Shown in pieces: positions 14,140-59,882 of a stretch of DNA of 64,000 nucleotides. Under the pieces are notes generated by a model that saw nothing but the letters and a program-made list of their open reading frames with translations, was not told where the DNA came from and searched no databases. The DNA lies in IMG/VR virus record IMGVR_UViG_3300032291_003166; one strand, written 5' to 3'. Made by a program: the position numbers and the translations under genes. Numbering within the stretch: the stretch's first letter is position 1; each line of letters opens with the position of its first letter. The stretch is from a virus. Taxonomy: Duplodnaviria > Heunggongvirae > Uroviricota > Caudoviricetes.

Positions 14140-14176
14140 TTCTTATATAATAAAGATAAGTAATTAGTCGAGGTCA
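14140..14176 (-). promoter_or_regulatory. conserved promoter-like element, variant B (TTCTTATATAATAAAGATAAG-N11-GGTCA on +)
   Basis: About 35 nt upstream of the ATG of 12921-14102. One of at least 18 near-identical copies. Confidence 0.6.
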
Positions 14177-14186
14177 TAAAAACCCA

Positions 14187-14423
14187 CTATTTCATATTTG
14201 TTGCTCTAGCAAATAATGAATCAAATATAAGATGATGATATTTGTATCCATGTTTCTTTGTTAACGCTCCATATAATTTTGGAATATTAATTTGTGTTTC
14301 TTTATCATACTCATCACCTAATTGAATTACATTTAATGCAAAACGAATATCACTATCTAACTCACTATTAATATTTTTTTCTAATTCCTTATATAAATTA
14401 TTATCTATTTTTAAAGTTTCCAT
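14187..14423 (-). CDS. hypothetical protein
   Basis: 78 aa ORF. Confidence 0.45.
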   Translation of the reverse strand: METLKIDNNLYKELEKNINSELDSDIRFALNVIQLGDEYDKETQINIPKLYGALTKKHGYKYHHLIFDSLFARATNMK

Positions 14424-15664
14424 TATCTAGTAATTTGAATTTTAGCACCTGGTAAATCCTCATTTACTTTACAGTTAGCGCAATGTACCCATAATACTGG
14501 TTTAATTGGTTTTGTTTCAGGTACACAACTTTCACCATCTGTTAAATAAATTAAATTTTGATACTTATCTGAATGTTCTTGTAAATATTTCATTACTGGT
14601 TCAAAATCTGTACCACCTCTACCTGATACTTTAATATTATCTGTTTCACCTTTATATTCATAAACTCTACCAATTCTAGCATCACATTCTACAATTGTCA
14701 CTTCAGTACCTGTTTTCCATATATGATATATTTCACTAAAGAAATCCTTTAAATCATTATCAGAAACAGAACCTGATGTGTCAATAGCAACTAATGTATT
14801 TTTCTTTTGTTTAATTTTTAAGGCTGGATTACCATAAAAACGTTTATTTGGTTTACGTCTTGTTTTCTTAGTATAAACTTTAGAAGCCATACCATTAAAA
14901 CGTCTAAGATAAGCTTTCCAATCAATAACTGCTTCTTCTTTAATTCTAAGTTCGTTAATTAATCCTTGTAATTCACCTGGTATAGTACCTCTATTACGTT
15001 CAACTTGATCTGCTACTTCTCTCAACTGATGTTCAATTTGTTTTTCCATCAATTTCTTTTCAGCCTCATCCATGTTCTCAAATTGTTTCCAAAACTCATG
15101 AGAACCTTTAACTGTAACCTTAGTGCCATCACCTAAAGTAATCTCTTTAGCCTCACCACTTCCATTAGCCTCAGACATTGCCTCCATAAATTTAGCAAAA
15201 TCACCTTCTGGGTTATCTTGTTGTTCTTTTTGTAACAAATCATAATACTTTCTAGTACCTGCTTTTAAGGGTAAATTTAACTCTTTAAATGGTGATTGAT
15301 CAATTTCTAAACCATCCCATGTTTCGTCCTTATAATCGTCTTGAATGTATTGATTAATTTCAATATCGGCAGCTACGTTTAATAATTGTTTATCTTGAAA
15401 ACTATCAAACATATGTAAGTGTTTAAATGCAATATGTAATAATTCATGTTTCAGAACTGCTACTTTACATTTCTCACCAATTGTATCCCAAAAAGCAGGA
15501 CTAACAACTAATTTAGTATTGATACCATCTTTAGCAACACATGCTGTTTGAACAGCATTACTAATTTCCTTATTTAAGCCAATCAAAAACAAACCATAAA
15601 ATGGTTCTTTAAACATTAATGTTTTAGCGTGTTTGGCAATGTCTGCGTGTAAATCGTCTATCAT
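14423..15664 (-). CDS. VWA-domain protein with N-terminal HExxH metallopeptidase-like domain (partner of MoxR ATPase)
   Basis: HELLHIAFKHLH motif N-terminally. MIDAS motif DTSGSVSD and a ...GRGGTDFEPV VWA core C-terminally. Confidence 0.65.
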   Translation of the reverse strand: MIDDLHADIAKHAKTLMFKEPFYGLFLIGLNKEISNAVQTACVAKDGINTKLVVSPAFWDTIGEKCKVAVLKHELLHIAFKHLHMFDSFQDKQLLNVAADIEINQYIQDDYKDETWDGLEIDQSPFKELNLPLKAGTRKYYDLLQKEQQDNPEGDFAKFMEAMSEANGSGEAKEITLGDGTKVTVKGSHEFWKQFENMDEAEKKLMEKQIEHQLREVADQVERNRGTIPGELQGLINELRIKEEAVIDWKAYLRRFNGMASKVYTKKTRRKPNKRFYGNPALKIKQKKNTLVAIDTSGSVSDNDLKDFFSEIYHIWKTGTEVTIVECDARIGRVYEYKGETDNIKVSGRGGTDFEPVMKYLQEHSDKYQNLIYLTDGESCVPETKPIKPVLWVHCANCKVNEDLPGAKIQITR

Positions 15665-15670
15665 GTCGTT

Positions 15671-15708
15671 TTATTTATATAATAAAGATAAGTAACTAGT
15701 CTAGGTCG
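15671..15708 (-). promoter_or_regulatory. promoter-like element, variant B (GGTCG variant box)
   Basis: TTATTTATATAATAAAGATAAG-N11-GGTCG directly upstream of the 14423-15664 start. Confidence 0.5.
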
Positions 15709-16810
15709 CAAAAACAATATCCACCAAGGCTTCTGAAGCACTATTACTTAACTTAAATTCTCTGTTAATATTATCTAGTAAGAATTTCTTAACAACCTTA
15801 CCTTCTTCACCTTCTTTAAAAGCTAATCTTAAACCACTACCAAATGCTTTCCAATCATGGTCCCATTTAATACCTTTGGTCTTTAATAATGCTAATAAAC
15901 CTTTTAAATTAGTATTAGATTGTGTATATTGACTAGGTCTAAAATTATGTAAATGATATAATTCATTTAATAAAAATGAAATTGATAACAATGTGTGGTC
16001 ATTAATAACCAAGTTAGACATCATTTCAAAACCTAACTTAATATTATCTTTATCCTCACTGAATAACATATCTCTTAGGATAGTTAAATATTCATCATCT
16101 AATTCAATACCATCTTTATTCAAATCAGCAAAAAATTCCTCATCAAAAATAAATTTTAATTTACCACTAAGAATATTTTTCTCATGTTCAAAAAGTAAAT
16201 TAACAACTTCAAATAATTTAGCATTACGGTATCCATCTACTTCAACTCCAGAAAATGAAGATGTATTAGCTTCAAATATAGCTTTATCAGCTGGATGTTT
16301 TTTAAATAATTCTTTTACAGTTTCTATATAATCTGGTCTAATATAAGCTACTTTATCTCTATTTTCAGCTTTTATATAGATATTTTTTTGTTTATCTACC
16401 GCCCAATTTGATTGTGCATTATCTAAAAAATGTTTTACTACAAATTTTTCTTTAAAAAATACAATATCTTCAATATTTAATTGTTTATTTAAATCATTAA
16501 TAAATCCTTTACTAATCAGAATATACTCAGCATAAGCATGTCTTGATGTCTTCTTTAATTTATTATCTTTAATAAACTCTTTTAATTTAAAACGAGGTAT
16601 TTCACTTGCTTTAGAAGCATAAAAAATACTACCATCTTTAATTTTACCTATTTTTGTGTTATAGATAGTATCAATTATCTTTTTTAATCTTAATGTGTTA
16701 TCTTTACTTATAAAATAACATTCTGAATTCCAATAATGGCTTCCTGAGTATTTAACTTTACCTGTGTTATAATCTTCAACAACATGGGTGGAAAAAACAT
16801 TTTCTAACAT
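15701..16810 (-). CDS. hypothetical protein
   Basis: 369 aa ORF. Confidence 0.5.
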   Translation of the reverse strand: MLENVFSTHVVEDYNTGKVKYSGSHYWNSECYFISKDNTLRLKKIIDTIYNTKIGKIKDGSIFYASKASEIPRFKLKEFIKDNKLKKTSRHAYAEYILISKGFINDLNKQLNIEDIVFFKEKFVVKHFLDNAQSNWAVDKQKNIYIKAENRDKVAYIRPDYIETVKELFKKHPADKAIFEANTSSFSGVEVDGYRNAKLFEVVNLLFEHEKNILSGKLKFIFDEEFFADLNKDGIELDDEYLTILRDMLFSEDKDNIKLGFEMMSNLVINDHTLLSISFLLNELYHLHNFRPSQYTQSNTNLKGLLALLKTKGIKWDHDWKAFGSGLRLAFKEGEEGKVVKKFLLDNINREFKLSNSASEALVDIVFAT

Positions 16811-16813
16811 AAT

Positions 16814-17017: not shown

Positions 17018-17065
17018 AATCTTTATTTTTTAATATATTTAAATTTAATGAATGGATTGAGGTCA

Positions 17066-17248: not shown

Positions 17249-17261
17249 AATTTCTTATTTT

Positions 17262-17298
17262 TTCTTATATAATAAAGATAATGAAAGAGCCGCGGTCA
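17262..17298 (-). promoter_or_regulatory. promoter-like element, variant B; GGTCA box lies in the loop of a GAGCCGC/GCGGCTC hairpin (17287-17314)
   Basis: Upstream of 17066-17248. Confidence 0.6.
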
Positions 17299-17341
17299 TA
17301 AAAGACTGCGGCTCAGTAAGGGTAATATTCTAGAAAATTAA

Positions 17342-18048: not shown

Positions 18049-18143
18049 TCACCTCTCTGTTCCAACCGCACATATCGTTCCCTGAGGATTTTATTGGTGA
18101 CATCAATAAATATAATAACTATCCTGTGGGTTATCCCTTAAAT

Positions 18144-21379: not shown

Positions 21380-21415
21380 TTAATATAATTAAATATAACA
21401 AACTAACCTAGGTCA
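21380..21415 (-). promoter_or_regulatory. promoter-like element, variant A (TTAATATAATTAAATATAAC-N11-GGTCA)
   Basis: Upstream of 20699-21367 with a cataacctttattt leader. Confidence 0.6.
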
Positions 21416-22846: not shown

Positions 22847-22882
22847 TTAATATAATTAAATATAACTAAGGAGTCGAGGTCA
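22847..22882 (-). promoter_or_regulatory. promoter-like element, variant A
   Basis: Upstream of 22648-22833. Confidence 0.6.
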
Positions 22883-23786: not shown

Positions 23787-23822
23787 TTAATATATTTAAA
23801 TATAACAAACTAGTCGCGGTTA
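23787..23822 (-). promoter_or_regulatory. promoter-like element, variant A (GGTTA variant box inside a GCGGTT-AAACCGC palindrome)
   Basis: Upstream of 23579-23767. Confidence 0.55.
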
Positions 23823-24239
23823 AACCGCAACTTCTTCATTCATAACAAACGCTTTTGAAGCCCATGTTTTAGCATTAACTGCTTTATATTGTTCCTGGCT
23901 ATACAAATTGGTGTTAAAATATAACTGATTGATAACACCAACCTCCAAACCTAATAACATATCCTCATCAATCATGATAACCTTTTTACCATTACGAGCA
24001 AAAACATTCAACCAAACATTACTATCTTCTGCTTTAAACTCAACAGTCTGTAAAGCACCTTTTTTATAACTACCTAATACAGCTGATGGATTGTTTGAGT
24101 AGTACTCATTATAACGTGGATCAACATCAACACAAGTTAACATACCGGACTGAGTTTTAACAATTGTTCTAAATTTACCTTTACGACCTTTAATAAATTC
24201 TACTGTGTTGATCTTTGTTGTGTTTATTACTTTTTTCAT
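23820..24239 (-). CDS. hypothetical protein
   Basis: 139 aa ORF behind a promoter-motif copy. Confidence 0.5.
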   Translation of the reverse strand: MKKVINTTKINTVEFIKGRKGKFRTIVKTQSGMLTCVDVDPRYNEYYSNNPSAVLGSYKKGALQTVEFKAEDSNVWLNVFARNGKKVIMIDEDMLLGLEVGVINQLYFNTNLYSQEQYKAVNAKTWASKAFVMNEEVAV

Positions 24240-24257
24240 AACCTTTATTTCTTATTT

Positions 24258-24294
24258 TTTCTTATATAATAAAGATACTAAGGCAGCCCGGGTC
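24258..24294 (-). promoter_or_regulatory. promoter-like element, variant B
   Basis: Upstream of 23820-24239. Box is CCCGGGTCA. Confidence 0.6.
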
Positions 24295-24402
24295 AACCAA
24301 CGATATGTATATATATCATCCGTATTAAAAAATCTATAAGAAACTCTTCTTGCGATCCCGATAACTTGTGCGCAAATGGGTAATTCGCGGTTTATAGAGC
24401 AG

Positions 24403-24588
24403 CTATTTGAGCTGGTGTCTATCTAATAAACATTTGGGACATTCCTTATCTTTATTGATAGGAGTACAACAAACAGGACATATGTGATCTACTTCATTCA
24501 TAGTATTAAATATTATATACGTATATATGCCATCGACGCAAAAGATCGTTTTCGATCGGAGAACACATATCATCTTTTTACGGGTCAA
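24403..24588 (-). CDS. small zinc-finger protein (4 Cys)
   Basis: CPVCC...CPKC. The real start may be the internal Met (MNEVDH...). Confidence 0.35.
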   Translation of the reverse strand: MTRKKMICVLRSKTIFCVDGIYTYIIFNTMNEVDHICPVCCTPINKDKECPKCLLDRHQLK

Positions 24589-24602
24589 CCACTCACGTCG
24601 AT

Positions 24603-24700
24603 GGACCTCTATTACCGGGGGGCCTCTAACATCCTTGAACCTCTAAGGCCCGGGATCTTTTTTTACCCCCCTTTAGCCTTTTTAATCTTGCACCTCTAAC
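24603..24700. repeat. four direct copies of CCTCTA(A) (17-, 17- and 53-nt spacing) in a GC-enriched intergenic segment
   Basis: ggaCCTCTAtta, ggCCTCTAAcat, aaCCTCTAAggc, caCCTCTAAcaa, interspersed with CCGGGGGG, CCCGGG and CCCCCC. Confidence 0.5.
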
Positions 24701-24930
24701 AACTCGTCGTCGTTATTTAAATCTAACGCATCATTGTAAATTCCACCATCGACATCAGCTATTAACGAGTCGAGTTCCGATATAGCCGATTCCAATTTAG
24801 AGGTCACGTTATGATAGCTATCCTCTATTAATTGCTGGTTATCTGTATTACGCAGTTCATCATCCAGGTTAGTATATAGTTCCTGTAGTTCCGCTTTAAT
24901 TTCGTTTAGGTATTGAGTTAGTTCATCCAT
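24682..24930 (-). CDS. small acidic hypothetical protein
   Basis: 82 aa ORF, strongly acidic. Confidence 0.45.
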   Translation of the reverse strand: MDELTQYLNEIKAELQELYTNLDDELRNTDNQQLIEDSYHNVTSKLESAISELDSLIADVDGGIYNDALDLNNDDELLEVQD

Positions 24931-25166
24931 TGTATTATAGTTTAATTGTTGTACTTAATCCTAATACACAAAATGTAAATCCATCTACACCATGTGCGAA
25001 ATATAGTATAGGAAAGTGCCTATAATTACTTTTACTAATGTAGCCAAATTTATAGCTAAATTTAATACCACGTGTTGTTTTCATAATTTTAATTTTTAAT
25101 ATAAATACTATCAATAATGGCTTTTAAAACTCATCCCATCCGGGGTAAAGAAACTAGGCCAATTAG

Positions 25167-25196
25167 TTTTTGCTGTAGTCAGGACAGGAATCGAAC
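25167..25196 (-). other. tRNA-like 3' fragment (T-arm ACAGG-TTCGATT-CCTGT plus acceptor-like CCTGACT-A) without a recognisable 5' half
   Basis: Minus strand reads ...GTAACAGGTTCGATTCCTGTCCTGACTACAGCA. The complementary AGTCAGG is found only ~140 nt upstream, at + 25302-25308. Confidence 0.3.
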
Positions 25197-25490
25197 CTGT
25201 TACATTAGCTTCACTTGGTTTCCTATCTTTTGCAGGTTTTAAAATATCTCAGATTGTCGCCCTACTCATATTTTATTATACCGCTACTGTATTTCCGCCA
25301 CCTGACTATATATCATTGGGAGGTTAAGTCCGCGGTTGTTACTCACTCACTATCCGGACCACCGGAGCAGCTTAACCTATTACATCATATACTATTGCAA
25401 TATGATAACCGTTTTATTATTAAGGAATTATAACCGACTATTTCTATTAATGGCAGACTCACCTCGGTTTAATTTTTTTAACTTCCTTAT

Positions 25491-25595
25491 TTAATTATCT
25501 TTATTTTTTAATTCATCAATCTTGTTACTTAAATTGTTATAACTAAGTATAATAAACACCATGTTTACTACTAATAAAAATGCTAATACTGCCAT
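25491..25595 (-). CDS. small hydrophobic peptide (34 aa), paralog of the peptide at 28088-28237, not in ORF track
   Basis: Manual translation MAVLAFLLVVNMVFIILSYNNLSNKIDELKNKDN, preceded by cataatttt... and a promoter-motif copy. Confidence 0.4.
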   Translation of the reverse strand: MAVLAFLLVVNMVFIILSYNNLSNKIDELKNKDN

Positions 25596-25620
25596 AATTT
25601 TTTATTTAATTTTTTTAACT

Positions 25621-25656
25621 TCCTATATATTAAATATAACTACCCTACCCGGGTCA
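25621..25656 (-). promoter_or_regulatory. promoter-like element, variant A, followed (upstream) by a GC-rich hairpin
   Basis: Upstream of the small peptide gene 25491-25595. Box is CCCGGGTCA. Confidence 0.55.
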
Positions 25657-25663
25657 TCCAATC

Positions 25664-25689
25664 GTGCACTTCCGCGGGTGGGAGGCGCA
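25664..25689. repeat. GC-rich hairpin repeat, copy 1 (gtgcacttccgcgggtgggaggcgca)
   Basis: Near-identical to copy 2. Each sits immediately upstream of a CCCGGGTCA promoter box. Confidence 0.55.
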
Positions 25690-25755
25690 TGTTTTCCTCT
25701 CCCAAACCTCCCCCCGCGCGGTTTTTATGGCGCGGTTTCCCTCCGCGTGTTATTT

Positions 25756-25971
25756 TTATGCGGCTTTTATCTCCACCGTTTTATTCTCCAATTCCTCTTT
25801 CTCCACTGAAATATAATATGTACTGTTGTCTGTGTTTTTACATATGAACACATGTTTACCTGATGCGCTATCTGTACCTAAATAAATACCTACGTGGTAA
25901 GTTGTTGTACCGTCTTCATATTTGCGTTTGATGTTGTAATTGTTTTTAATAACTAATTCCATAACCTGCAT
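25756..25971 (-). CDS. small hypothetical protein
   Basis: 71 aa ORF. A second ATG at 25960-25962 sits in the conserved cataacct context. Confidence 0.45.
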   Translation of the reverse strand: MQVMELVIKNNYNIKRKYEDGTTTYHVGIYLGTDSASGKHVFICKNTDNSTYYISVEKEELENKTVEIKAA

Positions 25972-26010
25972 TTCTTATTATATATAAATATAACAACCCA
26001 ACCCGGGTCA
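25972..26010 (-). promoter_or_regulatory. promoter-like element, variant A/B hybrid, followed (upstream) by a GC-rich hairpin
   Basis: Upstream of 25756-25971. Box is CCCGGGTCA. Confidence 0.55.
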
Positions 26011-26023
26011 CCCTAGCAGGATC

Positions 26024-26047
26024 GCGCACTCCCGCGGGTGGGAGCGC
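26024..26047. repeat. GC-rich hairpin repeat, copy 2 (gcgcactcccgcgggtgggagcgc)
   Basis: CTCCC-gcggg-TGGGAG stem-loop extended by GCG/CGC. Confidence 0.55.
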
Positions 26048-26306
26048 AATATTTTTTAATCCCAGCGCGTTGACCCGCAATATATCTGTATATAGGTCCC
26101 CTCTTTGTAGGGAGGCTTGGCCTCCGGCGCAAGGGGTGAACGTACCCACATCTCGCCACCACCCACACTTACACTACCGATCACATACCATCACACACTC
26201 ACACTTATATATAAACGCTATAACAACGCTTTACTAACCGGCTTGTCACCCACCGGCACCGTTTATCATCCATCACAGTAGTCGTTTATATCGCCGCTAT
26301 GTCGTC

Positions 26307-26513
26307 TTACTTGCCCGCCGTTTGGATGTAATCGTTTATATATTTTATCGTATTCTCGACCCTATACACTCGTCCACTCACCATGTATATATCTACATAG
26401 CTTGACTTTGCGTCTCCATTTCCGTCACGTACGATATGTGCTTCCATTGTCTCGATGTTGGACTCGTTTAGCCATATCGATCTGTCTTGTTGGTACTTAG
26501 TTAGTTCTATCAT
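26307..26513 (-). CDS. small hypothetical protein in GC-elevated segment
   Basis: 68 aa ORF. Local composition differs from the rest of the window. Confidence 0.4.
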   Translation of the reverse strand: MIELTKYQQDRSIWLNESNIETMEAHIVRDGNGDAKSSYVDIYMVSGRVYRVENTIKYINDYIQTAGK

Positions 26514-28245: not shown

Positions 28246-28285
28246 TTTTTAAATATAATTAAATATAATAATCTAGTCGGGGTCA
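28246..28285 (-). promoter_or_regulatory. promoter-like element, variant A
   Basis: Upstream of the small peptide gene 28088-28237. Confidence 0.6.
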
Positions 28286-29262: not shown

Positions 29263-29711
29263 TGCTCTGGTTTTAAAGGTAATACTGATACTTGAACTAA
29301 TGTTCCATCATCTGTAATACGACTATAATGTAATGTACTATCTTGATTTAATTTAATTATAATATCATATTCTAATACATTTCCAAATGCATTTTTAGAT
29401 GTTTTTAGTGTATCTACAATTATATATTCATTACCTATTGGTGTTGATTTTGTGGTTGTTTGATAATCAATCAACTCTGTCAATGTACTAAGTAATTTCT
29501 GATTAACCTCATATTTAATACTATTCTCAACAATCTTTGGATCAATGTGTCCAATAATCATATCTTGTGGTATATTATATACCGATCTAATTTGCATTAT
29601 TTTTTTATCAACTATTGTTGGGTTGAATTGAGGGTATTTAGGTTTAATTGGCTCGTAACCTAACATGAATAGCAATCTGTTGATGTATTTTTTCATAACC
29701 TTTATTTGCAA
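29250..29711 (-). CDS. hypothetical protein
   Basis: 153 aa ORF. Confidence 0.45.
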   Translation of the reverse strand: MQIKVMKKYINRLLFMLGYEPIKPKYPQFNPTIVDKKIMQIRSVYNIPQDMIIGHIDPKIVENSIKYEVNQKLLSTLTELIDYQTTTKSTPIGNEYIIVDTLKTSKNAFGNVLEYDIIIKLNQDSTLHYSRITDDGTLVQVSVLPLKPEQWKK

Positions 29712-29893
29712 TTTTTTAATTGTGCAATTTCTTCTCTTAATTTTCTAACTTCTTTAACTAAAGAATTGCTTTGCTCTTCTTTTTTTCTACATTCGTTGCA
29801 TGTTTGTCCCCACATACTTTGAGCAACTTTACCACAAGTATAACATTCATACCCAACTATGTTGCCTCTATAATCTCTTACTGAATTGTTCAT
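29702..29893 (-). CDS. small zinc-ribbon protein
   Basis: CYTC...CNEC. Confidence 0.4.
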   Translation of the reverse strand: MNNSVRDYRGNIVGYECYTCGKVAQSMWGQTCNECRKKEEQSNSLVKEVRKLREEIAQLKNCK

Positions 29894-30755: not shown

Positions 30756-30865
30756 ATTTTGTTTTACTTTATATGTGGGTTAAGTGGCTTGTCGGGTAAT
30801 TTATATCCTTCAATATAAAGTTCCCGCCGTCACACTTGCTATTAAAATTATATATACGTAGGAGG

Positions 30866-31120
30866 TTATGCGAATTTCGAAAAAGCTGCATTTGGTGTTT
30901 TTTCTATTTGTTTTAAATACTCTAACATTTTATTTAATGCTTCTATTTTTAATGTTACTTGACTTATTGAGTCACCTTTAAATGATACTGCTTCTTCATT
31001 TGCTGTTGTTACATCAATTGATTTTGATTTATGATTGTAACTTAACTCTATTACTTCTACATCCACTCCATTTTGAGCTTGGAAGTAAACTGTTTCCCAT
31101 GTTTTAATAATATCTACCAT
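30866..31120 (-). CDS. small hypothetical protein
   Basis: 84 aa ORF. Confidence 0.4.
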   Translation of the reverse strand: MVDIIKTWETVYFQAQNGVDVEVIELSYNHKSKSIDVTTANEEAVSFKGDSISQVTLKIEALNKMLEYLKQIEKTPNAAFSKFA

Positions 31121-31466: not shown

Positions 31467-31503
31467 TTAATATAATTAAATGTAAATATGGGGCCTAGGT
31501 TAT
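31467..31503 (-). promoter_or_regulatory. promoter-like element, degenerate variant A overlapping a GGGGC...GCCCC hairpin (31490-31512)
   Basis: TTAATATAATTAAATGTAAAT then a GC hairpin, upstream of the revised start at 31453. Confidence 0.45.
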
Positions 31504-31520
31504 CCAAGCCCCATTTTATA

Positions 31521-33754: not shown

Positions 33755-33790
33755 TTAATATAATTAAATATAAGTAACTAATTGAGGTCA
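33755..33790 (-). promoter_or_regulatory. promoter-like element, variant A
   Basis: Upstream of the small ORF 33575-33742. Confidence 0.55.
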
Positions 33791-34700: not shown

Positions 34701-34737
34701 TTCTTATATAATAAAGATAATGAGTTGATTAAGGTCA
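34701..34737 (-). promoter_or_regulatory. promoter-like element, variant B
   Basis: Upstream of 33778-34686. Confidence 0.6.
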
Positions 34738-36145: not shown

Positions 36146-36182
36146 TTCTTATATAATAAATATAACAAACTAACCCGGGTCA
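36146..36182 (-). promoter_or_regulatory. promoter-like element, hybrid (TTCTTATATAATAAATATAAC-N11-GGTCA)
   Basis: Upstream of 35309-36103. Confidence 0.6.
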
Positions 36183-37505: not shown

Positions 37506-37541
37506 TTAATATAATTAAATATATGTAACTGATTGGGGTCA
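37506..37541 (-). promoter_or_regulatory. promoter-like element, variant A
   Basis: Upstream of 37068-37493. Confidence 0.6.
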
Positions 37542-38243
37542 ACTATGTTTCCATATATACCCATGAGCTGTTTTTTGCTTTCCACTACAACATGATGATA
37601 TATCTCCACTGTTGATTCCTAATTCTTTAGATGCTGTTTTTAAGGAAGGCCAATGTTTTATTACATTCATATTTAAATCGTATTGTATTATTGGTTTTAA
37701 TCCTTTATCTATTTTATTTTCACTTATTTTTAAGACGTGTTCTTTAGATAATGTTTTACCTGACTTAGATAAACTTTGTTTTTTCTTCCATTCATCATTT
37801 CTAACCACCCCATAATTACCATGTTCATTTCCTTTCTTAGTAATATTATATTTTTGGCCTTTTTTTCTTATTCTAATTTTTTCTTTAGAATCATCGGAGT
37901 ATTTAGTTCCTAAATTATAATTATTACCTTTTTTAGATTGAGATATTTTATTTTTAGTTAAATCTGAGTGTTTGTCAGGGCCATTTCCTCCACTATTTTT
38001 ATTATAAAGAGCATAACCTAAATTTTCATAATATTTAATCCATTTTATTTCTAATGGTTTCCAATCAATCGACATAATAGAATCAACCTCTTCAATAACT
38101 TCAAATTTAATATCATTTCCAAATCTACGTTTATGATGATATTTTCTATGAGATATATTTAATGTTTTTCCAATATACACTGTTTTAGGATCATTATTGA
38201 TATTTGAAATTAAATAAATGTATGTCATGATTGTTATTTTCAA
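37539..38243 (-). CDS. GIY-YIG homing endonuclease (I-TevI-like, with NUMOD3 repeats and C-terminal HTH)
   Basis: YIYLISN...VYIGKT GIY-YIG core, followed by repeated K/S-rich NUMOD3-like units (SQSKKG, SKEKIRIRKKG, SKSGKT). Confidence 0.7.
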   Translation of the reverse strand: MKITIMTYIYLISNINNDPKTVYIGKTLNISHRKYHHKRRFGNDIKFEVIEEVDSIMSIDWKPLEIKWIKYYENLGYALYNKNSGGNGPDKHSDLTKNKISQSKKGNNYNLGTKYSDDSKEKIRIRKKGQKYNITKKGNEHGNYGVVRNDEWKKKQSLSKSGKTLSKEHVLKISENKIDKGLKPIIQYDLNMNVIKHWPSLKTASKELGINSGDISSCCSGKQKTAHGYIWKHS

Positions 38244-38277
38244 TAAATATATAAATTCCTACATTCCTGTCAAGAAT

Positions 38278-39354
38278 TTACTCATAACTATCTCTATCAA
38301 TATTGATCACCTTAGGAAAGCGAGGAACTTTATCTTCTGTTAATTCGAAATATTTGACAGTTGCTTTCTTCCCAATTAATTCATCTCTTTGATTCCATAA
38401 TTCAGTTAAATATTCCCAGGTTCCATTAACAGCAGAATCAAATGGTTTACCATTAATATTAAATTTAAGTTTACCAATTTTTGAACTTAAATTACCTTTT
38501 CCTTCTTCATAACCTAATATTTTAAATTCAGCATCATTAAATGTTTTATATTTTAATAATGATTTAGAACGTTTGTTTTCATAATTTGAATCCGTTCTTA
38601 ATATTTGTCCTTCATATCCGTCAGCCATATAATCAAAATAATAAGCTGATATATCATTCTCATTATCTACTTGTTCTGTTTTAACAACCTGGCATGTTGT
38701 AGGTAAAGATAAACTATTTAATACTCTAAAACGATCAACAAATGTCTTATCAACACTTGGTATATCATAGATATGATATTCAATACACTCAGCACTTAAT
38801 ATTAAATCTTCTGATGTTGGTTTTGTTTTACGAACACATGATATAATTTTATTAAAATCAGCTACATCCTTACTAGCATATAATTCTCCATCTAATATTA
38901 AATCTGGATTTGATTTAAGTAATGGTTTTAGTGATTCAAATATATGAGGTGCAGATATAATTCGTTTACCATTACGTGTCCACATACCATCTTCTTTAAC
39001 AATACATCTAATACCATCTAATTTAGGTTGAGTAAAGATTGGATATTTAATTTTATGTTTATAATCATTATAATCATGAGCTAACATTGGTTTAAAATAA
39101 ACTGGTGTGTCTATTTTATTTATATCTTCCCAATATCCTAACTCAGTACGTTTACGAAACATTGCGTCTGCTTCTCTAACTGCTTGTTCATTAGATGAAT
39201 TATATGATTTGCCTTCGCAACATGTCCATTCTGAAGTAACTTTTTGACCATCTTCAAAACCACTAATTGTTCTGAAGCAATTATCTTTTACTTCAATTCT
39301 CCATGTTGATACTTTACCTGTAACTGATCGCTTATATAAAATTGGATAACTCAT
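38278..39354 (-). CDS. ATP-dependent DNA ligase (T7-like)
   Basis: Motif I KLDGIR and a T7-ligase-like N-terminus. Confidence 0.75.
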   Translation of the reverse strand: MSYPILYKRSVTGKVSTWRIEVKDNCFRTISGFEDGQKVTSEWTCCEGKSYNSSNEQAVREADAMFRKRTELGYWEDINKIDTPVYFKPMLAHDYNDYKHKIKYPIFTQPKLDGIRCIVKEDGMWTRNGKRIISAPHIFESLKPLLKSNPDLILDGELYASKDVADFNKIISCVRKTKPTSEDLILSAECIEYHIYDIPSVDKTFVDRFRVLNSLSLPTTCQVVKTEQVDNENDISAYYFDYMADGYEGQILRTDSNYENKRSKSLLKYKTFNDAEFKILGYEEGKGNLSSKIGKLKFNINGKPFDSAVNGTWEYLTELWNQRDELIGKKATVKYFELTEDKVPRFPKVINIDRDSYE

Positions 39355-39366: not shown

Positions 39367-39402
39367 TTAATATATTTAAATATAGTAAAGGAATTGAGGT
39401 CA
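39367..39402 (-). promoter_or_regulatory. promoter-like element, variant A
   Basis: Upstream of the DNA ligase gene 38278-39354. Confidence 0.6.
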
Positions 39403-39464
39403 ACTAAACTTACTTATAACCAAGTTATAAGGGTCCATTAATAAAGATACATAAGGGATTAGGG

Positions 39465-40100
39465 TCAGACCTTAGAAATGAATTCACTTCCTGGTTCAAT
39501 TTCAGAACTAGTATTTAATATACCTAAATTACCTAAATGTTCTTTATAATAATCATCTAACTCCCAAGTCACTTCACTTTGATAAGTTGATGGATTATAA
39601 TCTTCAATATGCTGAACTTGTTTATCAGTAAATATATTACCTACATATAAGAAATAATGATTGTAACATAGTAATTCTAAATTTTCTATTCTCCAATTTT
39701 TCTTATTACCATCTTTAAAGTTAAGTATTAAAGGTACTTTATAATCAATTACTCTTCGTTCTGCGAAACCACAGTTAGAACAACATTCTTGTAAATAACT
39801 TTCTTGTATTAACCTGTTTTTTAATTTTTCAGGAGTGTATGAGTCAACTGATACTCTACCTTCTATTATATCTAATAATGCTGGTTCTTTACCTCGGTTA
39901 GGTAAAAATTTAGATATACCTTTGCCTGATTGATTTAAATGTTTTTCAAATAGTGTTATACCATTTTCATCTGTAAAATTTTTAGCATATTGTTTATAAT
40001 GAGTGTATGAACAGTTAAGGTATCTAGCCGCCGCGCGATTAGATTTAGTCATTCTCATTGCTCGCTCTATATCATCTTTTAGAAATGGTTTTGGTTTCAT
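39465..40100 (-). CDS. HNH homing endonuclease with N-terminal HTH
   Basis: CSNCGF...NLELLCYNH HNH motif. Confidence 0.6.
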   Translation of the reverse strand: MKPKPFLKDDIERAMRMTKSNRAAARYLNCSYTHYKQYAKNFTDENGITLFEKHLNQSGKGISKFLPNRGKEPALLDIIEGRVSVDSYTPEKLKNRLIQESYLQECCSNCGFAERRVIDYKVPLILNFKDGNKKNWRIENLELLCYNHYFLYVGNIFTDKQVQHIEDYNPSTYQSEVTWELDDYYKEHLGNLGILNTSSEIEPGSEFISKV

Positions 40101-40839: not shown

Positions 40840-42024
40840 TTATTTACTATAAATATGAACTAGATTCTGTTCATAAGTATTCATAGCATTAATTTTAATT
40901 TTGAATATATCTAATTCAAATTCTCCTATTTCACCTGATTCAGCTATGATTTCTGGTAGTTGAGTTAATATATTAAATGCATCTTGGTTTAAGTATTGAG
41001 CGTCAAATTCTACTATAATATCTTCTTTAGGGGTATTATATTTTGTTACTTTAATTTTAGATTTTAAATCAACTTTAGTATGAGGTTGTTCATTTTCATA
41101 ATAAGCTGCTTCTAATACTCCCATTTCATCATCAAGGTATATTGTATCACACCATGGTTCTAGAGTTGCTAACATATTTAAATTACAAGTACTAACTACA
41201 AATGCAATATTATATTTGGGAGGTATAATTGGTTTCATAAATGAATCATGTTTTACAAAATGTCCCCACTTACGAATAAAATTTCTAGCATTTTTACTTG
41301 TTGTATGTAACCACTCCTCACTATTCTTACCAGCACTACCTCCAGCATGTTTATTAAATCTACTACCTCGGCTAGTAAAATGATACACTAAAGCATCCCA
41401 TGATTGAATTACTTTATATCCTTTTAATATAAAACGATTAAATAAATCACTATCCTCTTTAGACTGTGGAGCAAATAATTCATCATGTCCTCCAATAGCT
41501 AAAAAATCATCTTTATACATACACCATGGTGCAAATATACCTTCAGTTACTTTATCTTTATTTAATACTTCATTTTGTGAAGACCATTCATACCAATTAT
41601 CTTTAAACTCATCAGCTTCAATCCCAAAGTCCATAGTTATTTTTTCTGGTCCTGAAGGATGTAATGGTGGTTCAACCCTAGTAGCACTTACTACTATACC
41701 TGGTTTTAGATGTTTTAAAATATTACTATCTAAATTAGGTGAAGCAACCATATCAGCATGAAAAGCAAATATAATATCTGTTCGAGCCATTTCAATCCCT
41801 TTATCAAACATTCCTACTATACCAATACGTTCTGGGCCTGGATTGTGATATGTTATTAAATCGTTGTCATCTAGTTGTTTAATCCAATCTTGTGTGCCGT
41901 CTACACTCGCGTCATCTAAAACTAATATTTCATGTTTAGTTTTTAAATTACGAATTGATTTATAAGCTAATTGTAAAAATTCTAAATTGTTTCTACTTGG
42001 TAATACAAATGTTATTTTTTGCAT
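40840..42024 (-). CDS. family-2 glycosyltransferase
   Basis: VLPSRN...LVLDDASVDGT, a GT-A DxD signature. Confidence 0.65.
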   Translation of the reverse strand: MQKITFVLPSRNNLEFLQLAYKSIRNLKTKHEILVLDDASVDGTQDWIKQLDDNDLITYHNPGPERIGIVGMFDKGIEMARTDIIFAFHADMVASPNLDSNILKHLKPGIVVSATRVEPPLHPSGPEKITMDFGIEADEFKDNWYEWSSQNEVLNKDKVTEGIFAPWCMYKDDFLAIGGHDELFAPQSKEDSDLFNRFILKGYKVIQSWDALVYHFTSRGSRFNKHAGGSAGKNSEEWLHTTSKNARNFIRKWGHFVKHDSFMKPIIPPKYNIAFVVSTCNLNMLATLEPWCDTIYLDDEMGVLEAAYYENEQPHTKVDLKSKIKVTKYNTPKEDIIVEFDAQYLNQDAFNILTQLPEIIAESGEIGEFELDIFKIKINAMNTYEQNLVHIYSK

Positions 42025-51973: not shown

Positions 51974-52011
51974 AATAATTTTAATTTGTTATATATAAAT
52001 ATATACAAATA

Positions 52012-52965
52012 TTAAGAAACGATGTTTTTATCACAAAGTTCTTTATTATTACTGAATGGACAATATAAGCATGAATTTTTACTTACTATTTTAGGATAAT
52101 CTTTATCTATATGTTTACCTTCATTATCAAAACAATCATTTAAGAAATTATTAAATAATTCCATTGCTTGTTTTCTTTTTGTTTTACCAGCTGCTGGTTT
52201 AAACATTTGAGCACGAGGTATGATAAAATTATCATTATCCCATAATTTTCTTTTAACTATAAAAAATTGTACTTCAATTTTATCTACTTCAATATTATAT
52301 TGTTTAGCAAAAAATTCTTTATAAAGTAAAATTTGAGCTATTTTAACATCATCTTTTTTCTCTTTATTCTTCCAACCCTGTCTTGATGTTTTAATATCGT
52401 ATATATAAACTTTATCTAAATCTTTATCATATAAAACAAAATCAATATAGCCTTTAATAAATAAATTTTTACTTAAACCTACCATTAATGGCATCTCAAT
52501 ACCTAATAATACAACATTGCGGGTTGAAAAATATTGTCTACGATGTTTTTTAAAAAAATCTAAAATTTCAATACCATCTTCATAAAACTCAGCCATCTCA
52601 TCTGGTGATGAAAAGTGAGTTTTAGTTCTATTAAATTCTTCTTTATATAATGTTTTAAATGTTTCTTTGAATACAGCTATTATATCTTCTCTATCAGCTT
52701 CAGCTCCACTTACTTCATATAATATTTTTAAATAATGCTGCATTGCCTCATGAATTGCTGTTCCAAATATAGTATGGATTGATTGTTCATATGTAGATAA
52801 ACCTTTAACATAGTTTAAATACCATTGATGAGGACATTTACGATAAATTGAGTATTGAGAATATGATACAGCTTTTTGATAACTATAATTTAATTCGGTA
52901 GGTTTATGATTTTGAACTTTAAGTTCAACTTCAGTTAATCTTTGTTTAGCCATTATTTTTTCCAT
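52012..52965 (-). CDS. PD-(D/E)xK nuclease with Cas4/RecB-like Cys cluster
   Basis: N-terminal Cys (RKCPHQW), D...DIKTSRQGW core, and C-terminal CLYCPFSNNKELC. Confidence 0.5.
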   Translation of the reverse strand: MEKIMAKQRLTEVELKVQNHKPTELNYSYQKAVSYSQYSIYRKCPHQWYLNYVKGLSTYEQSIHTIFGTAIHEAMQHYLKILYEVSGAEADREDIIAVFKETFKTLYKEEFNRTKTHFSSPDEMAEFYEDGIEILDFFKKHRRQYFSTRNVVLLGIEMPLMVGLSKNLFIKGYIDFVLYDKDLDKVYIYDIKTSRQGWKNKEKKDDVKIAQILLYKEFFAKQYNIEVDKIEVQFFIVKRKLWDNDNFIIPRAQMFKPAAGKTKRKQAMELFNNFLNDCFDNEGKHIDKDYPKIVSKNSCLYCPFSNNKELCDKNIVS

Positions 52966-53309
52966 TTACCTGCTTTTACAAGCAAAGCGATAATTGAGTA
53001 GTTAGATAAGTCTATATAAGCATCTTCTATAGGCTCATTATCTAATGAATTGGTTTTATTTAACAATACTAATTGTTTTAAACGTTGCATTTTATCCATT
53101 GAACGGATCCAAATTGCTGTTAAGGATAGATTGACATCCTCTTTAGTTTCTAAATTAGAACCCATAGCAATGTTTCCTAAACCATAAGATAACATTTTAC
53201 GAGCAAATAATTCGTATTGTTCTTTTTGTATTGCTTTAAATCCTTCAGCTAATTCAGGATATTCGATTTCAAAATCTTCTACAAACGGGTTAATTTTTTT
53301 ATTTTCCAT
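52953..53309 (-). CDS. hypothetical protein
   Basis: 118 aa ORF. Confidence 0.45.
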   Translation of the reverse strand: MENKKINPFVEDFEIEYPELAEGFKAIQKEQYELFARKMLSYGLGNIAMGSNLETKEDVNLSLTAIWIRSMDKMQRLKQLVLLNKTNSLDNEPIEDAYIDLSNYSIIALLVKAGKWKK

Positions 53310-53685: not shown

Positions 53686-54087
53686 TTATTTTCTCCTTTT
53701 TTTAAGTTTACTTGACGTCCCCACGTTAAGTATATTTTCAACTTCTTCATCAGTTAATATAGTAACATATTCTTTTGCTTCTCTAGTACTACACTGATAG
53801 TATTCAGATATTTTATTTATGGTTTCTGTTTCAAATTTACTCTTAGATTTAATATATCTAAAAAATGCTTTCTTTTTAGGTAATAAATCACAGTAGAATT
53901 TATAAACTACTTTATTAGAGCAATTTGGATATCGTTGAATTAAATTAACAACATCAATGTAATTAGGATCCATACTGATGAATCGGTTAATCATATATAG
54001 ATTAAACTCGTTTTTTTCATCATCAGTAAATTTATCCCATGGTCGCTTACTGTATGTTATTTCATTTAACCAATCGAATAAATTCAT
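53686..54087 (-). CDS. hypothetical protein
   Basis: 133 aa ORF. Confidence 0.45.
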   Translation of the reverse strand: MNLFDWLNEITYSKRPWDKFTDDEKNEFNLYMINRFISMDPNYIDVVNLIQRYPNCSNKVVYKFYCDLLPKKKAFFRYIKSKSKFETETINKISEYYQCSTREAKEYVTILTDEEVENILNVGTSSKLKKRRK

Positions 54088-54368
54088 TATTCAGCTGTTT
54101 TCTTTAATGGTTCAGGTAGAAATTCTTCATTAACGTGTCCACACTTAGAACATGAAAATACTGGTAGTGGAATTAAGGCATCTTTTTCTGTACCTGCTAA
54201 AAATCGACTTGCTTTTCTAAGCATTAATCCTTCTTGAAATACATTATGTCCACATTCTTCACAAACGATTTCTGCTGTTTTATCTAAACTAATGTTTAAT
54301 TGTAATTGTTCTTGACTCATTTTGTTTTGGTTTATATTTAAATTAATTAATTTATTCTGGGTATACAA
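54087..54368 (-). CDS. zinc-ribbon protein
   Basis: CEECGH...CSKCGH. Confidence 0.45.
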   Translation of the reverse strand: MYTQNKLINLNINQNKMSQEQLQLNISLDKTAEIVCEECGHNVFQEGLMLRKASRFLAGTEKDALIPLPVFSCSKCGHVNEEFLPEPLKKTAE

Positions 54369-56325: not shown

Positions 56326-56356
56326 GTTATTTTTGTTTATTATAAATATAATAACT

Positions 56357-57309: not shown

Positions 57310-57311
57310 AA

Positions 57312-58537: not shown

Positions 58538-58547
58538 TATTTATATT

Positions 58548-58742
58548 TTAGTTAATAATAAAATCATAACTTGCACAATCCATCATTAATTCTCGTGATA
58601 AATTATAATCATTATATATATTTTCAAAATTTCTAATTAACTTTTCACAAGTTTCATATTGTTGAATATTAGTACATGACGGAATAACTTCTTCCTTAAT
58701 CCACATATACACATCGTATTTGTTTTTGCTTTTAGCTGCCAT
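58548..58742 (-). CDS. small hypothetical protein
   Basis: 64 aa ORF. Confidence 0.4.
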   Translation of the reverse strand: MAAKSKNKYDVYMWIKEEVIPSCTNIQQYETCEKLIRNFENIYNDYNLSRELMMDCASYDFIIN

Positions 58743-58744
58743 TT

Positions 58745-59551
58745 TTAAATTATATATAGTGGTTTTGAAGTATTATTTAATTCTGGGAATGCTGTATTAA
58801 TAAAATTATCCATATTTACTTCTCTTGTTTTAGATAAGTGTTTAATGAAATTTAATTTTTTCATATCCTTTTCTATATTAGTATTATGTTCATATGTTCG
58901 CATAATCATTTTTTGGATTAAATTTAATAAATTATAATATGGTTTAGCATCTTTCATAAAACTATCCATACGTTTCCAATACTTATATGAAGTAGATGAT
59001 CTGGAATCTAAAGCATATCGCATTCTGTAACTTAAAGTAATACTTGGATGAACTAATTGTATCTCAAAATCATCAAAAAATACAGATATAATATCTTTTT
59101 TCCTAATAATTTCATCATTAAAAATATCTATTTTAAAAAACATATTTTTGTTTAAGTCAGAATCAACTGGTTCTTCTAAGGTTTTAGTGAATTGCCACAT
59201 TTTAGCATTAGGATCAAATGTAAATGGTTTTTTTTCTTCCTCCCATGAATAACCTCTTGTACTATCATTTAAATCAAAGAAATTTTTAATAGAATTATAA
59301 TCTTCTTCAGTAAATACTTCTGTTAATCCTAAATCAAAATCACCAACTTTTTCCATAGGTTCAAAACCTAATAATTTTAAAGAAAGACTACCAGTTAAAC
59401 ATATTTTATTATTCATTGCTAACATAGGTAAAATAAATTTCTCAAAAGAAATTTTATCATCAGGATGTAATGAATCTATTATTGTTTTATTAAAGTTGAG
59501 TCTCATCAACCCAGTATCAGAATTGACACTATATTGTAAATTTATATTCAT
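58745..59551 (-). CDS. hypothetical protein
   Basis: 268 aa ORF. Confidence 0.5.
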   Translation of the reverse strand: MNINLQYSVNSDTGLMRLNFNKTIIDSLHPDDKISFEKFILPMLAMNNKICLTGSLSLKLLGFEPMEKVGDFDLGLTEVFTEEDYNSIKNFFDLNDSTRGYSWEEEKKPFTFDPNAKMWQFTKTLEEPVDSDLNKNMFFKIDIFNDEIIRKKDIISVFFDDFEIQLVHPSITLSYRMRYALDSRSSTSYKYWKRMDSFMKDAKPYYNLLNLIQKMIMRTYEHNTNIEKDMKKLNFIKHLSKTREVNMDNFINTAFPELNNTSKPLYII

Positions 59552-59566
59552 AACCTTTATTTTAAT

Positions 59567-59833
59567 TTAAAAACGCTTTGCTAATTTTATAATTAACGCT
59601 TCTTCTTCGTTAGTTAACTGGTAATAGTTACTAGATAATTTTGTTATAGCGTCTGTAAACTCCCAATTATTGGCAGATGCTACCACAGGTATACCATAAC
59701 CATCTTCAATTAATAACTGAAGCATTTGTTTTGCTTCTGAACTATTCATTTCATCATAGAAATCTTCTACACTAACATCAATGTCTACGTCAGTGTATTC
59801 TTCAAGGCATGCTGATTCAGTAAATTTTGGCAT
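59567..59833 (-). CDS. small hypothetical protein
   Basis: 88 aa ORF behind a promoter-motif copy. Confidence 0.4.
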   Translation of the reverse strand: MPKFTESACLEEYTDVDIDVSVEDFYDEMNSSEAKQMLQLLIEDGYGIPVVASANNWEFTDAITKLSSNYYQLTNEEEALIIKLAKRF

Positions 59834-59846
59834 AATTTTTATTTTT

Positions 59847-59882
59847 TTAATGTAATTAAATATAAGTAATTAACTGCGGTCA
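59847..59882 (-). promoter_or_regulatory. promoter-like element, variant A
   Basis: TTAATGTAATTAAATATAAG-N11-GGTCA upstream of 59567-59833. Confidence 0.55.

Follow-up and report, generated by a model that had tools for sequence, protein, structure and literature searches.

To our knowledge, hardly any work has been done on how phages of Bacteroidota programme their transcription. In phage T4, late promoters consist of TATAAATA and are read by gp55, gp33 and gp45. At T4 middle promoters, where AsiA and MotA act together in sigma appropriation, a MotA box stands in for the -35 element, at a distance of 12 ± 1 bp from a sigma70 -10 element (PMC2988021). The T4-type phages RB49 and phi1 carry promoter-early stem-loop (PeSL) cassettes, dozens of near-identical intergenic copies with a strong early promoter (PMC2839356). 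The -7 element of Flavobacterium johnsoniae is TAHHTTTG, running from T-12 to G-5 with the start 4-5 nt downstream, its -33 box is weak, and further motifs are centred at -18 and -28 (PMC6847099); the Flavobacterium -33 box has also been described as dispensable or weak (PMC2483708). Here we describe a repeated element of a Flavobacterium-type phage that shares features with several of these systems.

Results

The window, by which we mean the whole stretch of 64,000 nucleotides analysed here, comes from a large freshwater phage of the Flavobacterium type and amounts to only about 40% of its genome. This phage belongs to a group with ~165-kb genomes that is distantly T4-like and related to Flavobacterium phage immuto (Immutovirus). 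The initial annotation had noticed a recurrent element in which a TGACC box precedes an A/T block at a fixed distance, and the element is real. Its exact core, TGACC-N13-TAHHTTTA, has 16 matches in the window against 0.11 expected. With an iterated weight matrix we recover 18 sites; every one is on the minus (gene) strand, and the plus strand has none (Table 1). Beyond these 18 there are four weaker variants, two with N13 (39467 and 30868) and two with N14 (61258 and 18133). The spacer length is also as invariant as had been claimed, the N13 to TAnnTTTA used here being the earlier N11 plus 2: 16 of the 29 gene-strand TGACC pentamers lie exactly 13 nt 5′ of TAnnTTTA, and when spacings of 6 to 22 nt are considered, none of the 29 is paired with it at a distance other than 13 nt. 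The TGACC box holds 1.2-2.8 bits per position and the spacer 0.1-1.1 bits per position.

The 36-nt consensus first proposed matches 11 sites with at most three mismatches and none in shuffled sequence. It describes class A copies (...TTATATTTAATTATATTAA) well but not class B copies (...TTATCTTTATTATATAAGA), in which the distal block is shifted by 1 nt. All copies are on the gene strand and upstream of start codons; they fall within intergenic gaps or overlap them, from 14 to 60 kb, and none is found in the structural block at 1-12 kb. This strand-locked placement agrees with the promoter-like behaviour suggested earlier and points to promoter activity of the cassettes. The distance of 15-35 nt to the start codon needs revision: the end of the A/T box is 22-25 nt from ATG in 12 of 17 copies (overall range 13-53 nt), so the 36-nt block usually stops about 12-15 nt before ATG. 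The 'AAATAAAGGTT-ATG' tail, once counted as part of the element, lies outside the promoter and is a general trait of translation starts in this phage, because GTTATG is present at 24 of 101 gene starts.

Table 1. Positions of the cassettes, their variants and the sigma-like gene in the window
Feature	Position	Strand	Remarks
TTTGG-TAACC-N14-TATATTCA variant	61222..61258	-	upstream TTG retained; weak
Class A cassette	59847..59882	-	upstream of 88-aa ORF
Extra TGACC-N13-TATCTTTA copy	39432..39467	-	tandem, 65 nt upstream of 39402 copy; weak
Class A cassette	39367..39402	-	upstream of DNA ligase gene (38278-39354)
Class A cassette	37506..37541	-	upstream of 141-aa ORFan
Class B cassette	36147..36182	-	upstream of 264-aa ORF
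Class B cassette	34702..34737	-	TTG also retained 20 nt upstream of -7 box
Class A cassette	33755..33790	-	
TAACC variant, class A	31467..31502	-	inside terminator-like hairpin (31488-31514)
Weak TAACC-N13-TAATTTTA copy	30833..30868	-	110-nt intergenic gap
Class A cassette	28250..28285	-	
TGACC-type cassette	25975..26010	-	overlaps ATATTTATA motif and hairpin
TGACC-type cassette	25621..25656	-	no ORF of at least 40 aa after it; faces ORF-poor stretch
Class B cassette	24260..24295	-	upstream of 139-aa ORFan
TAACC variant, class A	23787..23822	-	overlaps hairpin (23812-23832)
Class A cassette, exact match to earlier consensus	22847..22882	-	upstream of small ORFs and tRNA-Met
Class A cassette, exact match to earlier consensus	21380..21415	-	left edge of 3.3-kb block missing from L092
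TAACC-N14 variant	18097..18133	-	downstream of RNA ligase gene; right edge of 3.3-kb block missing from L092
Class B cassette	17263..17298	-	within hairpin GAGCCGC...GCGGCTC; L092 homology stops here
Class A cassette	17030..17065	-	
CGACC variant, class B	15673..15708	-	upstream of DUF2201 metallopeptidase/VWA gene; variant box conserved in orthologous promoters
Class B cassette	14141..14176	-	upstream of AAA ATPase gene; TGACC invariant in six orthologous promoters; L092 synteny break
Sigma-like protein gene (250 aa, two helical domains)	9924..10676	-	proposed late sigma rather than TGACC reader

The host-like Bacteroidetes pattern had been reported as absent, but the A/T block proves to contain most of its -7 element. 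Its invariant part, TA[T/A][A/C]TTTA, equals the host consensus TAHHTTTG (PMC6847099) at seven of eight positions, sharing T-12, A-11, H, H, T-8, T-7 and T-6. The same seven of eight positions are matched in all 53 TGACC-type copies, with no G at the two H positions. The phage box differs from the -7 element of Bacteroidota housekeeping promoters (-33 TTTG / -7 TAnnTTTG) in its last base, which is A in 18 of 18 window copies and in 98 of 99 copies of the sister clade, whereas the host G-5 is nearly invariant. The second difference is upstream: TTG at N20 is kept in only 13 of 53 TGACC-clade copies, so that a -33 box (TTTG or TTG, 19-21 nt upstream) is mostly gone from this clade. The initial annotation had likened TGACC to a sigma70 -35 box. 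A sigma70-type -35/-10 promoter, with TTGACA-like and TATAAT-like hexamers 16-18 nt apart, is rejected as TGACC is only 13 nt from TATATT, too close to the -10-like TA for a -35 box, and a sigma70-type consensus scan of the region showed no enrichment (117 found against 128 expected) and missed the elements.

Sister phages, including the cultured immuto, have the same core in the arrangement TTG-N20-TATATTTA, which matches the canonical host geometry with TTG exactly 20 nt upstream. In 11 sister loci such copies number 99 on the gene strand against 3 on the other strand, and in immuto 28 against 1. Most of them gather where ORFans are plentiful, and the spacer shows no conservation, also at the place where the window's clade has TGACC 13 nt from the -7 box. 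TGACC-N13 is used by all five distinct relatives compared in which the sigma-like protein shares 79% identity or more with that of the window (L002, L006, L089, L091 and L092). It is evident that the upstream box is limited to one phage lineage, and the element is in this sense phage-specific, as first proposed. A scan of bacterial genomes gave scattered single hits among the matches listed, which carry no weight either way. In the window's clade, TGACC is at about -30 to -26 relative to the predicted start, and TTG is largely decayed. At six orthologous promoters TGACC is invariant, although these promoters differ in their spacers and even in the -7 box. Other lineages (L096 and L020) also have lineage-specific conserved spacer sequences, so concerted evolution of the cassettes, and not a dedicated factor, could explain part of the conservation.

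The cassettes also coincide with differences in gene content. Copies flank ORFans, and synteny with the closest relative, L092, breaks at the cassettes at 21415, 18148, 17258 and 14177. When alignment ends were pooled, 6 of 39 were no more than 15 nt away from a cassette, where 2.6 would be expected (P about 0.04). As with the PeSL cassettes of RB49 and phi1, repeated copies of what would be early promoters are concentrated in plastic, ORFan-rich regions, where they bound the insertions and deletions that separate close relatives, and in some of them a terminator hairpin lies over the promoter boxes. PeSL cassettes differ in that the stem-loop terminator is integral to each, whereas only about 5 of the 18 window copies have a stable, convincing hairpin across the boxes (3 of them found by a terminator scan). 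As a further difference, the window's putative promoter is Bacteroidota-like, and the box upstream is non-canonical.

In the sigma-like protein, a disordered linker connects a sigma-2 fold at the N-terminus with a helical domain at the C-terminus. Structurally it is most similar to the late sigma gp55 of T4, and phage sigma factors with two domains match it over the full length. The window and immuto proteins are 47% identical overall, with both domains about equally conserved; the putative recognition helix reads STPQITKIIKRLK in one of the pair and ETPTLTRVISKLK in the other. The gene stands at the head of the structural block, beside the late genes, and a ATATTTATA motif lies ahead of structural genes in all relatives examined, immuto included. 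The protein had been suggested as the reader of the element. The protein is indeed sigma-like, but because immuto, which lacks TGACC, conserves both domains equally and the gene heads ATATTTATA-bearing structural genes, it is more likely to be a late sigma than the TGACC reader. We regard ATATTTATA as a candidate late promoter class paired with this gp55-like sigma. T4 late transcription likewise combines gp55 with a single-box promoter ahead of structural genes. The likeness concerns ATATTTATA only, while the TGACC element is bipartite and missing from structural genes. A middle or late class had been proposed for the element; late use is unlikely, given the lack of copies at 1-12 kb, where ATATTTATA is found instead, and early or middle use fits.

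Discussion

In geometry the element resembles T4 middle promoters. Both pair a host-type -10-like element with a box that is specific to a phage lineage and replaces the -35 or -33 element, here with TTG largely lost; the box lies 12 ± 1 bp upstream in T4 and a fixed 13 bp here, centred near -28 to -30, and the genes served include DNA and nucleotide enzymes in both. The differences are also clear. The MotA box is (a/t)(a/t)(a/t)TGCTTtA and not TGACC, the host is a member of the Bacteroidota, and the same cassettes in sister phages resemble plain host-type early promoters. The 118 window ORFs (~40% of the genome) match 76 Pfam families, the best 25 of which include neither MotA nor AsiA, and the best 25 of 41 matched families for the 65 small window ORFs include no HTH, MotA or AsiA family. 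We found no candidate TGACC-binding protein in this ~40% of the genome.

On balance, we lean towards the view that the element is the main early/middle promoter cassette of the phage, with a -7 box read by the host and a TGACC box read by an auxiliary factor. Judged from the sequence and the relatives, the -7 box TA[T/A][A/C]TTTA would be recognized by region 2 of the host primary sigma. By analogy with F. johnsoniae, transcription should start about 5-6 nt past this box and give a leader of about 17 nt. TGACC would supplant the decayed -33 TTG as the upstream recognition element. Since TGACC stands in for the usual TTG box but lies a few bases nearer to the -7 box, the host polymerase may depend on a helper at these cassettes. 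The most likely helper would be an auxiliary factor, either an early phage product or a protein brought in with the virion, by which the host RNA polymerase is redirected, because TGACC is too close to the -7 box for a normal sigma region 4 contact and has the geometry of the T4 MotA box. More tentatively, TGACC is possibly the docking site of such a factor, which would re-target the Bacteroidota sigma-A holoenzyme in the style of sigma appropriation and would have evolved in a single clade, where it took the place of the ancestral -33 contact. The genes driven would be ORFans together with DNA and nucleotide enzymes. Read-through from the 14176 copy probably also drives the gene of the gp55-like sigma, which would then activate late genes via the separate ATATTTATA motif. 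The cassettes would mark, in addition, joints at which gene blocks are gained or lost between relatives, like the PeSL cassettes of RB49.

It is also conceivable, if rather doubtful, that the entire element is read by the host RNA polymerase on its own. TGACC would then be a host-specific upstream contact near -28 or a tolerated -33 substitute, and the cassettes would be ordinary but very strong early promoters tuned to this clade's own Bacteroidota host. The promoters used first after infection have to function without phage proteins and should work with the unaided host polymerase, which favours direct host recognition. The cassettes match the sister TTG-N20 promoters in kind of position and are similarly dense, one cassette sharing with a sister promoter the position after the RNA ligase gene, and part of the copies keep TTG at N20. 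Since the -33 box is dispensable or weak in Flavobacterium and motifs centred at -18 and -28 occur (PMC2483708; PMC6847099), the host polymerase might itself contact DNA near -28. However, the pentamer is G+C-rich and under stricter conservation than the -7 box, and so does not resemble the -28 signal described for the host, which is A/T-rich, and the 13-nt spacing is incompatible with known sigma region 4 contacts at -35.

Another proposal is that TGACC and a weakly symmetric downstream GAYTA form a repressor operator that shuts off early transcription from a promoter with only a -7 box. The sequence forms a partial dyad, TGACC-nn-G(A/G)(T/C)T(A), whose second half carries 0.7-1.1 bits per position, its placement between the -33 and -7 boxes is typical for repressors, and the -33 box is not essential in Flavobacterium (PMC2483708). 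We consider this improbable: the second half-site is weak and departs from a true palindrome at positions 8 and 10, the loss of TTG in the same clade is better explained by a positive function of TGACC, and the 65 small window ORFs give no HTH protein among the matches listed. The least credible reader of both boxes is the 9924-10676 product itself, with a C-terminal helix-turn-helix on TGACC and sigma-2 on the A/T block, for although its two-domain architecture would suit a bipartite element, its resemblance to gp55, its place at the head of the structural block, the ATATTTATA motif ahead of structural genes in both clades and the conservation of both domains in immuto, whose promoters are TTG-N20, all point elsewhere, and its own gene lies downstream of TGACC promoters, which fits a cascade and not self-dependence.

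Our preferred reading, with an auxiliary factor on TGACC, bears on a phage group that is very abundant in lake metagenomes: more than 8000 protein clusters are homologous to its sigma-like protein alone. The comparison defines an early promoter class with a core common to the whole group and a candidate late class, ATATTTATA, paired with the gp55-like sigma. It also reveals a natural experiment, in which one clade swapped the -33 TTG for a differently placed TGACC, and this swap makes it directly testable whether it is the host polymerase or a phage factor that rewires the upstream contact of a promoter. Should the docking-factor reading be true, this would be the first such system outside enterobacterial T4-like phages, with the TTG-type sister clade as its natural control. 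The cassettes mark joints of gene shuffling in these genomes and may offer ready-made strong promoters for Flavobacterium genetics.

Repeated TGACC elements

The window is A/T-rich (~28% G+C), and all of its credible genes are on the minus strand. Structural and lysis genes (baseplate wedge, gp25-like protein, endolysin) occupy 1-12 kb, and 14-60 kb contain many ORFans, DNA ligase, RNA ligase, thymidylate synthase, nucleases, an AAA ATPase with a VWA-metallopeptidase and a sugar-modification cluster. The promoter context proposed in the initial annotation is borne out, as every copy of the TGACC element lies in or overlaps an intergenic gap within 14-60 kb. The 36-nt consensus given there matches 11 sites at ≤3 mismatches and none in shuffled sequences, and a position weight matrix iterated from these settles at 18 sites, every one of them on the minus strand and none on the plus strand. 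The minimal core, TGACC-N13-TAHHTTTA, has 16 exact matches in the window vs 0.11 expected. The spacing is as invariant as had been claimed: of the 29 TGACC pentamers on the gene strand, 16 have TAnnTTTA on their 3′ side at exactly 13 nt, and within 6-22 nt no other distance occurs. Four weaker copies were also found (see table). From the end of the -7-like box to the ATG there are 22-25 nt in 12 of 17 copies, and two cassette subclasses can be told apart by a 1-nt shift of the distal A/T block. The “AAATAAAGGTT-ATG” tail does not belong to the promoter but is a general translation-start trait of the phage, with GTTATG at 24 of the 101 gene starts. The TGACC repeat is a real feature and far from random. 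The best explanation is an early or middle promoter cassette specific to the clade, in which a Bacteroidota -7 core is combined with a non-canonical upstream TGACC box.

Positions of individual features (window unless a related locus is named)
Feature	Position	Strand	Remark
Weaker cassette copies	39467, 30868		N13
Weaker cassette copies	61258, 18133		N14
Homology breaks vs L092	21415, 18148, 17258, 14177
ATATTTATA copies	2464-2472, 6089-6097, 9900-9908, 12391-12399, 25983-25991, 40848-40856, 51994-52002, 56341-56349	minus
GIY-YIG/NUMOD homing-endonuclease gene	37539-38243	minus
Element ahead of homing-endonuclease gene	38244-38277		TTGACA...TATATTTA
ORF-poor region	24230-26330	minus	richer in G+C
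Conserved block	24513-24655		91.6% identical to L092
tRNA-like piece	25175-25305		acceptor-like stem TAGTCAGG...CCTGACTA, T-arm ACAGGTTCGATTCCTGT
Small paired-CxxC ORFs	54087-54368, 29702-29893	minus
DUF1599 ORF	52953-53309		“nucleotide modification associated”
Cassette before DNA polymerase ORF	L001 1013-1045
Extended upstream sequence	L020 4036-17542		TTAACACTT...TTTTCACGG
Extended upstream sequence	L096 6408-14131		TTTGGCTTTTCAGA

The A/T block and the host promoter type

The invariant part of the A/T block is TA[T/A][A/C]TTTA. In Flavobacterium johnsoniae the -7 element is TAHHTTTG (T-12 to G-5) and transcription starts 4-5 nt beyond it (PMC6847099); a general Bacteroidota -33/-7 consensus has been described as well (PMC2483708). 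The phage core agrees with the F. johnsoniae element at 7 of 8 positions, including the lack of G at both H positions; the sole mismatch is the last base, which is A in 18 of 18 window copies. For the -7 box, the initial claim that the element lacks a host-type Bacteroidota pattern therefore does not hold. The comparison of TGACC with a sigma70 -35 element is not supported either; a sigma70-type scan gave no enrichment. A good TATATT hexamer is found 13 nt from TGACC and the distal hexamer at 22-23 nt. TGACC as a sigma70 -35 with TTTAAT or TATATT downstream was rejected, because the 17-nt register places T at the critical -11 position. A bacterial genome scan for TGACC-N13-TATATTTAA returned at least 120 scattered single matches; among the matches listed, none is window-related and none has two or more copies, and the scan is uninformative on the host or on host use of the motif.

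The promoter-like cassette in related phages

Flavobacterium phage immuto (Immutovirus, 160 kb) is the sole cultured relative found; its genome shares synteny with the window and includes genes for T4-like gp20, gp23 and prohead protease. The sigma-like protein has >8000 homologous clusters, of which the 120 listed all share at least 78% identity with the window protein, and several of these 120 sit on ~165-kb metagenome contigs. Complete contigs of ~165 kb include Ga0453895_0000004 and Ga0480410_0000002. Lake metagenomes are the main source of the related loci fetched via the RNA ligase gene. An exact look-up of a window-end ORF, aimed beyond the window, found no record.

TGACC-N13-TAHHTTTA is present, on the gene strand only, in all five distinct fetched relatives with a sigma-like protein ≥79% identical to that of the window (L002, L006, L089, L091 and L092). 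It is likewise carried by L001, a locus with DNA polymerase, clamp and GroEL genes that is probably another part of a TGACC-clade genome. In L001 just 4 nt separate the -7 box of a cassette from the ATG of the DNA polymerase ORF, so either the mRNA would be leaderless or translation would begin at a later start codon. Immuto, and more distant relatives retrieved with the two ligase genes (RNA and DNA), show the same core with TTG exactly 20 nt upstream. This TTG-N20 arrangement is canonical for Bacteroidota and corresponds to a sigma70 spacer of 17 nt. Such cores number 99 on the gene strand vs 3 on the opposite strand in 11 loci; the spacer of these sister-phage copies is unconserved, and the last box base is A in 98 of 99. 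The immuto elements (28 gene-strand vs 1) are grouped in the ORFan-rich 19.8-25.5 kb and 60.9-76.2 kb. Since the sister phages share the core with TTG-N20, sequence comparison indicates that the TGACC element is its own clade's version of a promoter cassette common to the whole phage group. Further lineage-specific extensions are seen in L020, L096 and L093, and those of L020 and L096 stand on the shared TATATTTA core. Our literature search turned up no relevant description of a promoter motif in immuto-like phages.

In F. johnsoniae numbering TGACC occupies -30 to -26, the same stretch that is unconserved spacer in the sister phages, and the ancestral TTG at -35 to -33 is retained in only 13 of 53 TGACC-type copies. 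The information content is 1.2-2.8 bits per position in TGACC vs 0.1-1.1 in the spacer. In the orthologous promoter before the AAA ATPase gene, compared in six genomes, TGACC is invariant, and the spacer and even the -7 box vary. TGACC appears to be under selection, not merely inherited.

The sigma-like ORF and a candidate late promoter

The ORF at 9924-10676 had been put forward as sigma-like and as a possible reader of the element. It has no match at the sequence level in Pfam, PHROGs or PDB (phmmer and profile searches) and was identified by fold search only. In the AlphaFold model (mean pLDDT 68.6), a disordered linker connects two helical domains, 28-129 and 161-243, and in BFVD two-domain phage sigma factors match the protein over its full length; both support the sigma-like assignment. 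That this protein reads TGACC is unlikely. The gene heads the structural block, and its product shares 47% identity with the immuto homologue, the two domains being conserved to a similar degree, yet immuto is without TGACC promoters. The occurrence of ATATTTATA before structural genes and its conservation in relatives argue in the same direction, and the protein more probably reads ATATTTATA late promoters.

There are 8 gene-strand copies of ATATTTATA in the window and none on the opposite strand, each 3-29 nt before a start codon, including those of three structural genes. The copies have C-rich sequence ahead and no upstream box. The motif recurs at orthologous sites in every relative examined: 26 gene-strand copies vs 0 were found in five loci, and immuto has 14 vs 1, ahead of terminase, tail sheath and tail fibre genes. 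The raw count in the window, 8 vs 10 expected, does not exceed chance, and it is strand, position and conservation, not count, that support ATATTTATA as a candidate late promoter for the gp55-like sigma.

Recognition of TGACC

A 13-nt spacing is too short for sigma region 4 contact. TGACC has the geometry of the T4 MotA box, which replaces the -35 element and is located 12 ± 1 bp from the -10 element (PMC2988021). Given this spacing, this geometry and the lack of sigma70 enrichment, we favour the reading of TGACC by an auxiliary factor, which would re-target the host polymerase. The simplest model is a T4-like cascade: TGACC promoters would be active early or in the middle period and would result in expression of the gp55-like sigma gene, located downstream of the copy at 14176, and this sigma would then read the ATATTTATA late promoters. 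Our regulator search covered the window, only ~40% of the genome; no HTH, MotA or AsiA family is among the 25 of 76 and 25 of 41 matched Pfam families listed for its ORFs, and its small ORFs gave sub-threshold zinc-ribbon matches only. The two small ORFs with paired CxxC motifs show such similarity to the zinc ribbons of TFIIB and small RNA polymerase subunits, and could, on this weak sequence resemblance, be polymerase-binding factors. The immuto annotation includes a similar small “RpoN/RPB10” protein.

The main rival to an auxiliary factor is direct recognition of the cassette by the host polymerase. The cassettes resemble counterparts of the plain early promoters of the sister phages, the -33 box is weak or dispensable in Flavobacterium (PMC2483708, PMC6847099), and host promoters show motifs centred at -18 and -28 (PMC6847099). 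It is possible but less likely that TGACC is a repressor operator, as the dyad TGACC-nn-GAYTA is weak. An RNA-level role of the element was rejected, with hairpins in a minority of copies only and Rfam matches to tRNA-Met alone.

Cassettes at proposed recombination joints

Homology between the window and L092, its closest relative, breaks at four places, each at a cassette. Two of the breaks, at 21415 and 18148, bound a 3.3-kb block that is missing from L092 (compare L092 2646-2656), with cassettes on both sides; it contains a phosphoesterase gene, three ORFs and the RNA ligase gene. When five relatives are pooled, 6 of 39 alignment ends lie ≤15 nt from a cassette vs 2.6 expected (P ~0.04). 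Terminator-like hairpins embed about 5 of 18 cassette copies. In joint position and hairpins the window cassettes parallel the PeSL cassettes described in phages RB49 and phi1 (PMC2839356).

The element ahead of the homing-endonuclease gene is canonical (TTG-N19) and without TGACC, and this mobile gene therefore appears to bring its own, differently built promoter. Three TGACC promoters feed into the ORF-poor region, where the conserved block is more similar to L092 than is neighbouring coding DNA. The tRNA-like piece in this region received no call by ARAGORN or Rfam and its folding z-scores are not significant; relaxed ARAGORN and folding of the ORF-poor 24-26 kb likewise gave nothing significant.

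Immuto encodes a complete 7-deazaguanine DNA-modification set (DpdA, QueC, QueD, QueE, QueF and FolE; 18.6-37 kb), and the window has the DUF1599 ORF. If guanines of the phage DNA are modified, the reading of G-containing boxes such as TGACC/GGTCA could change.
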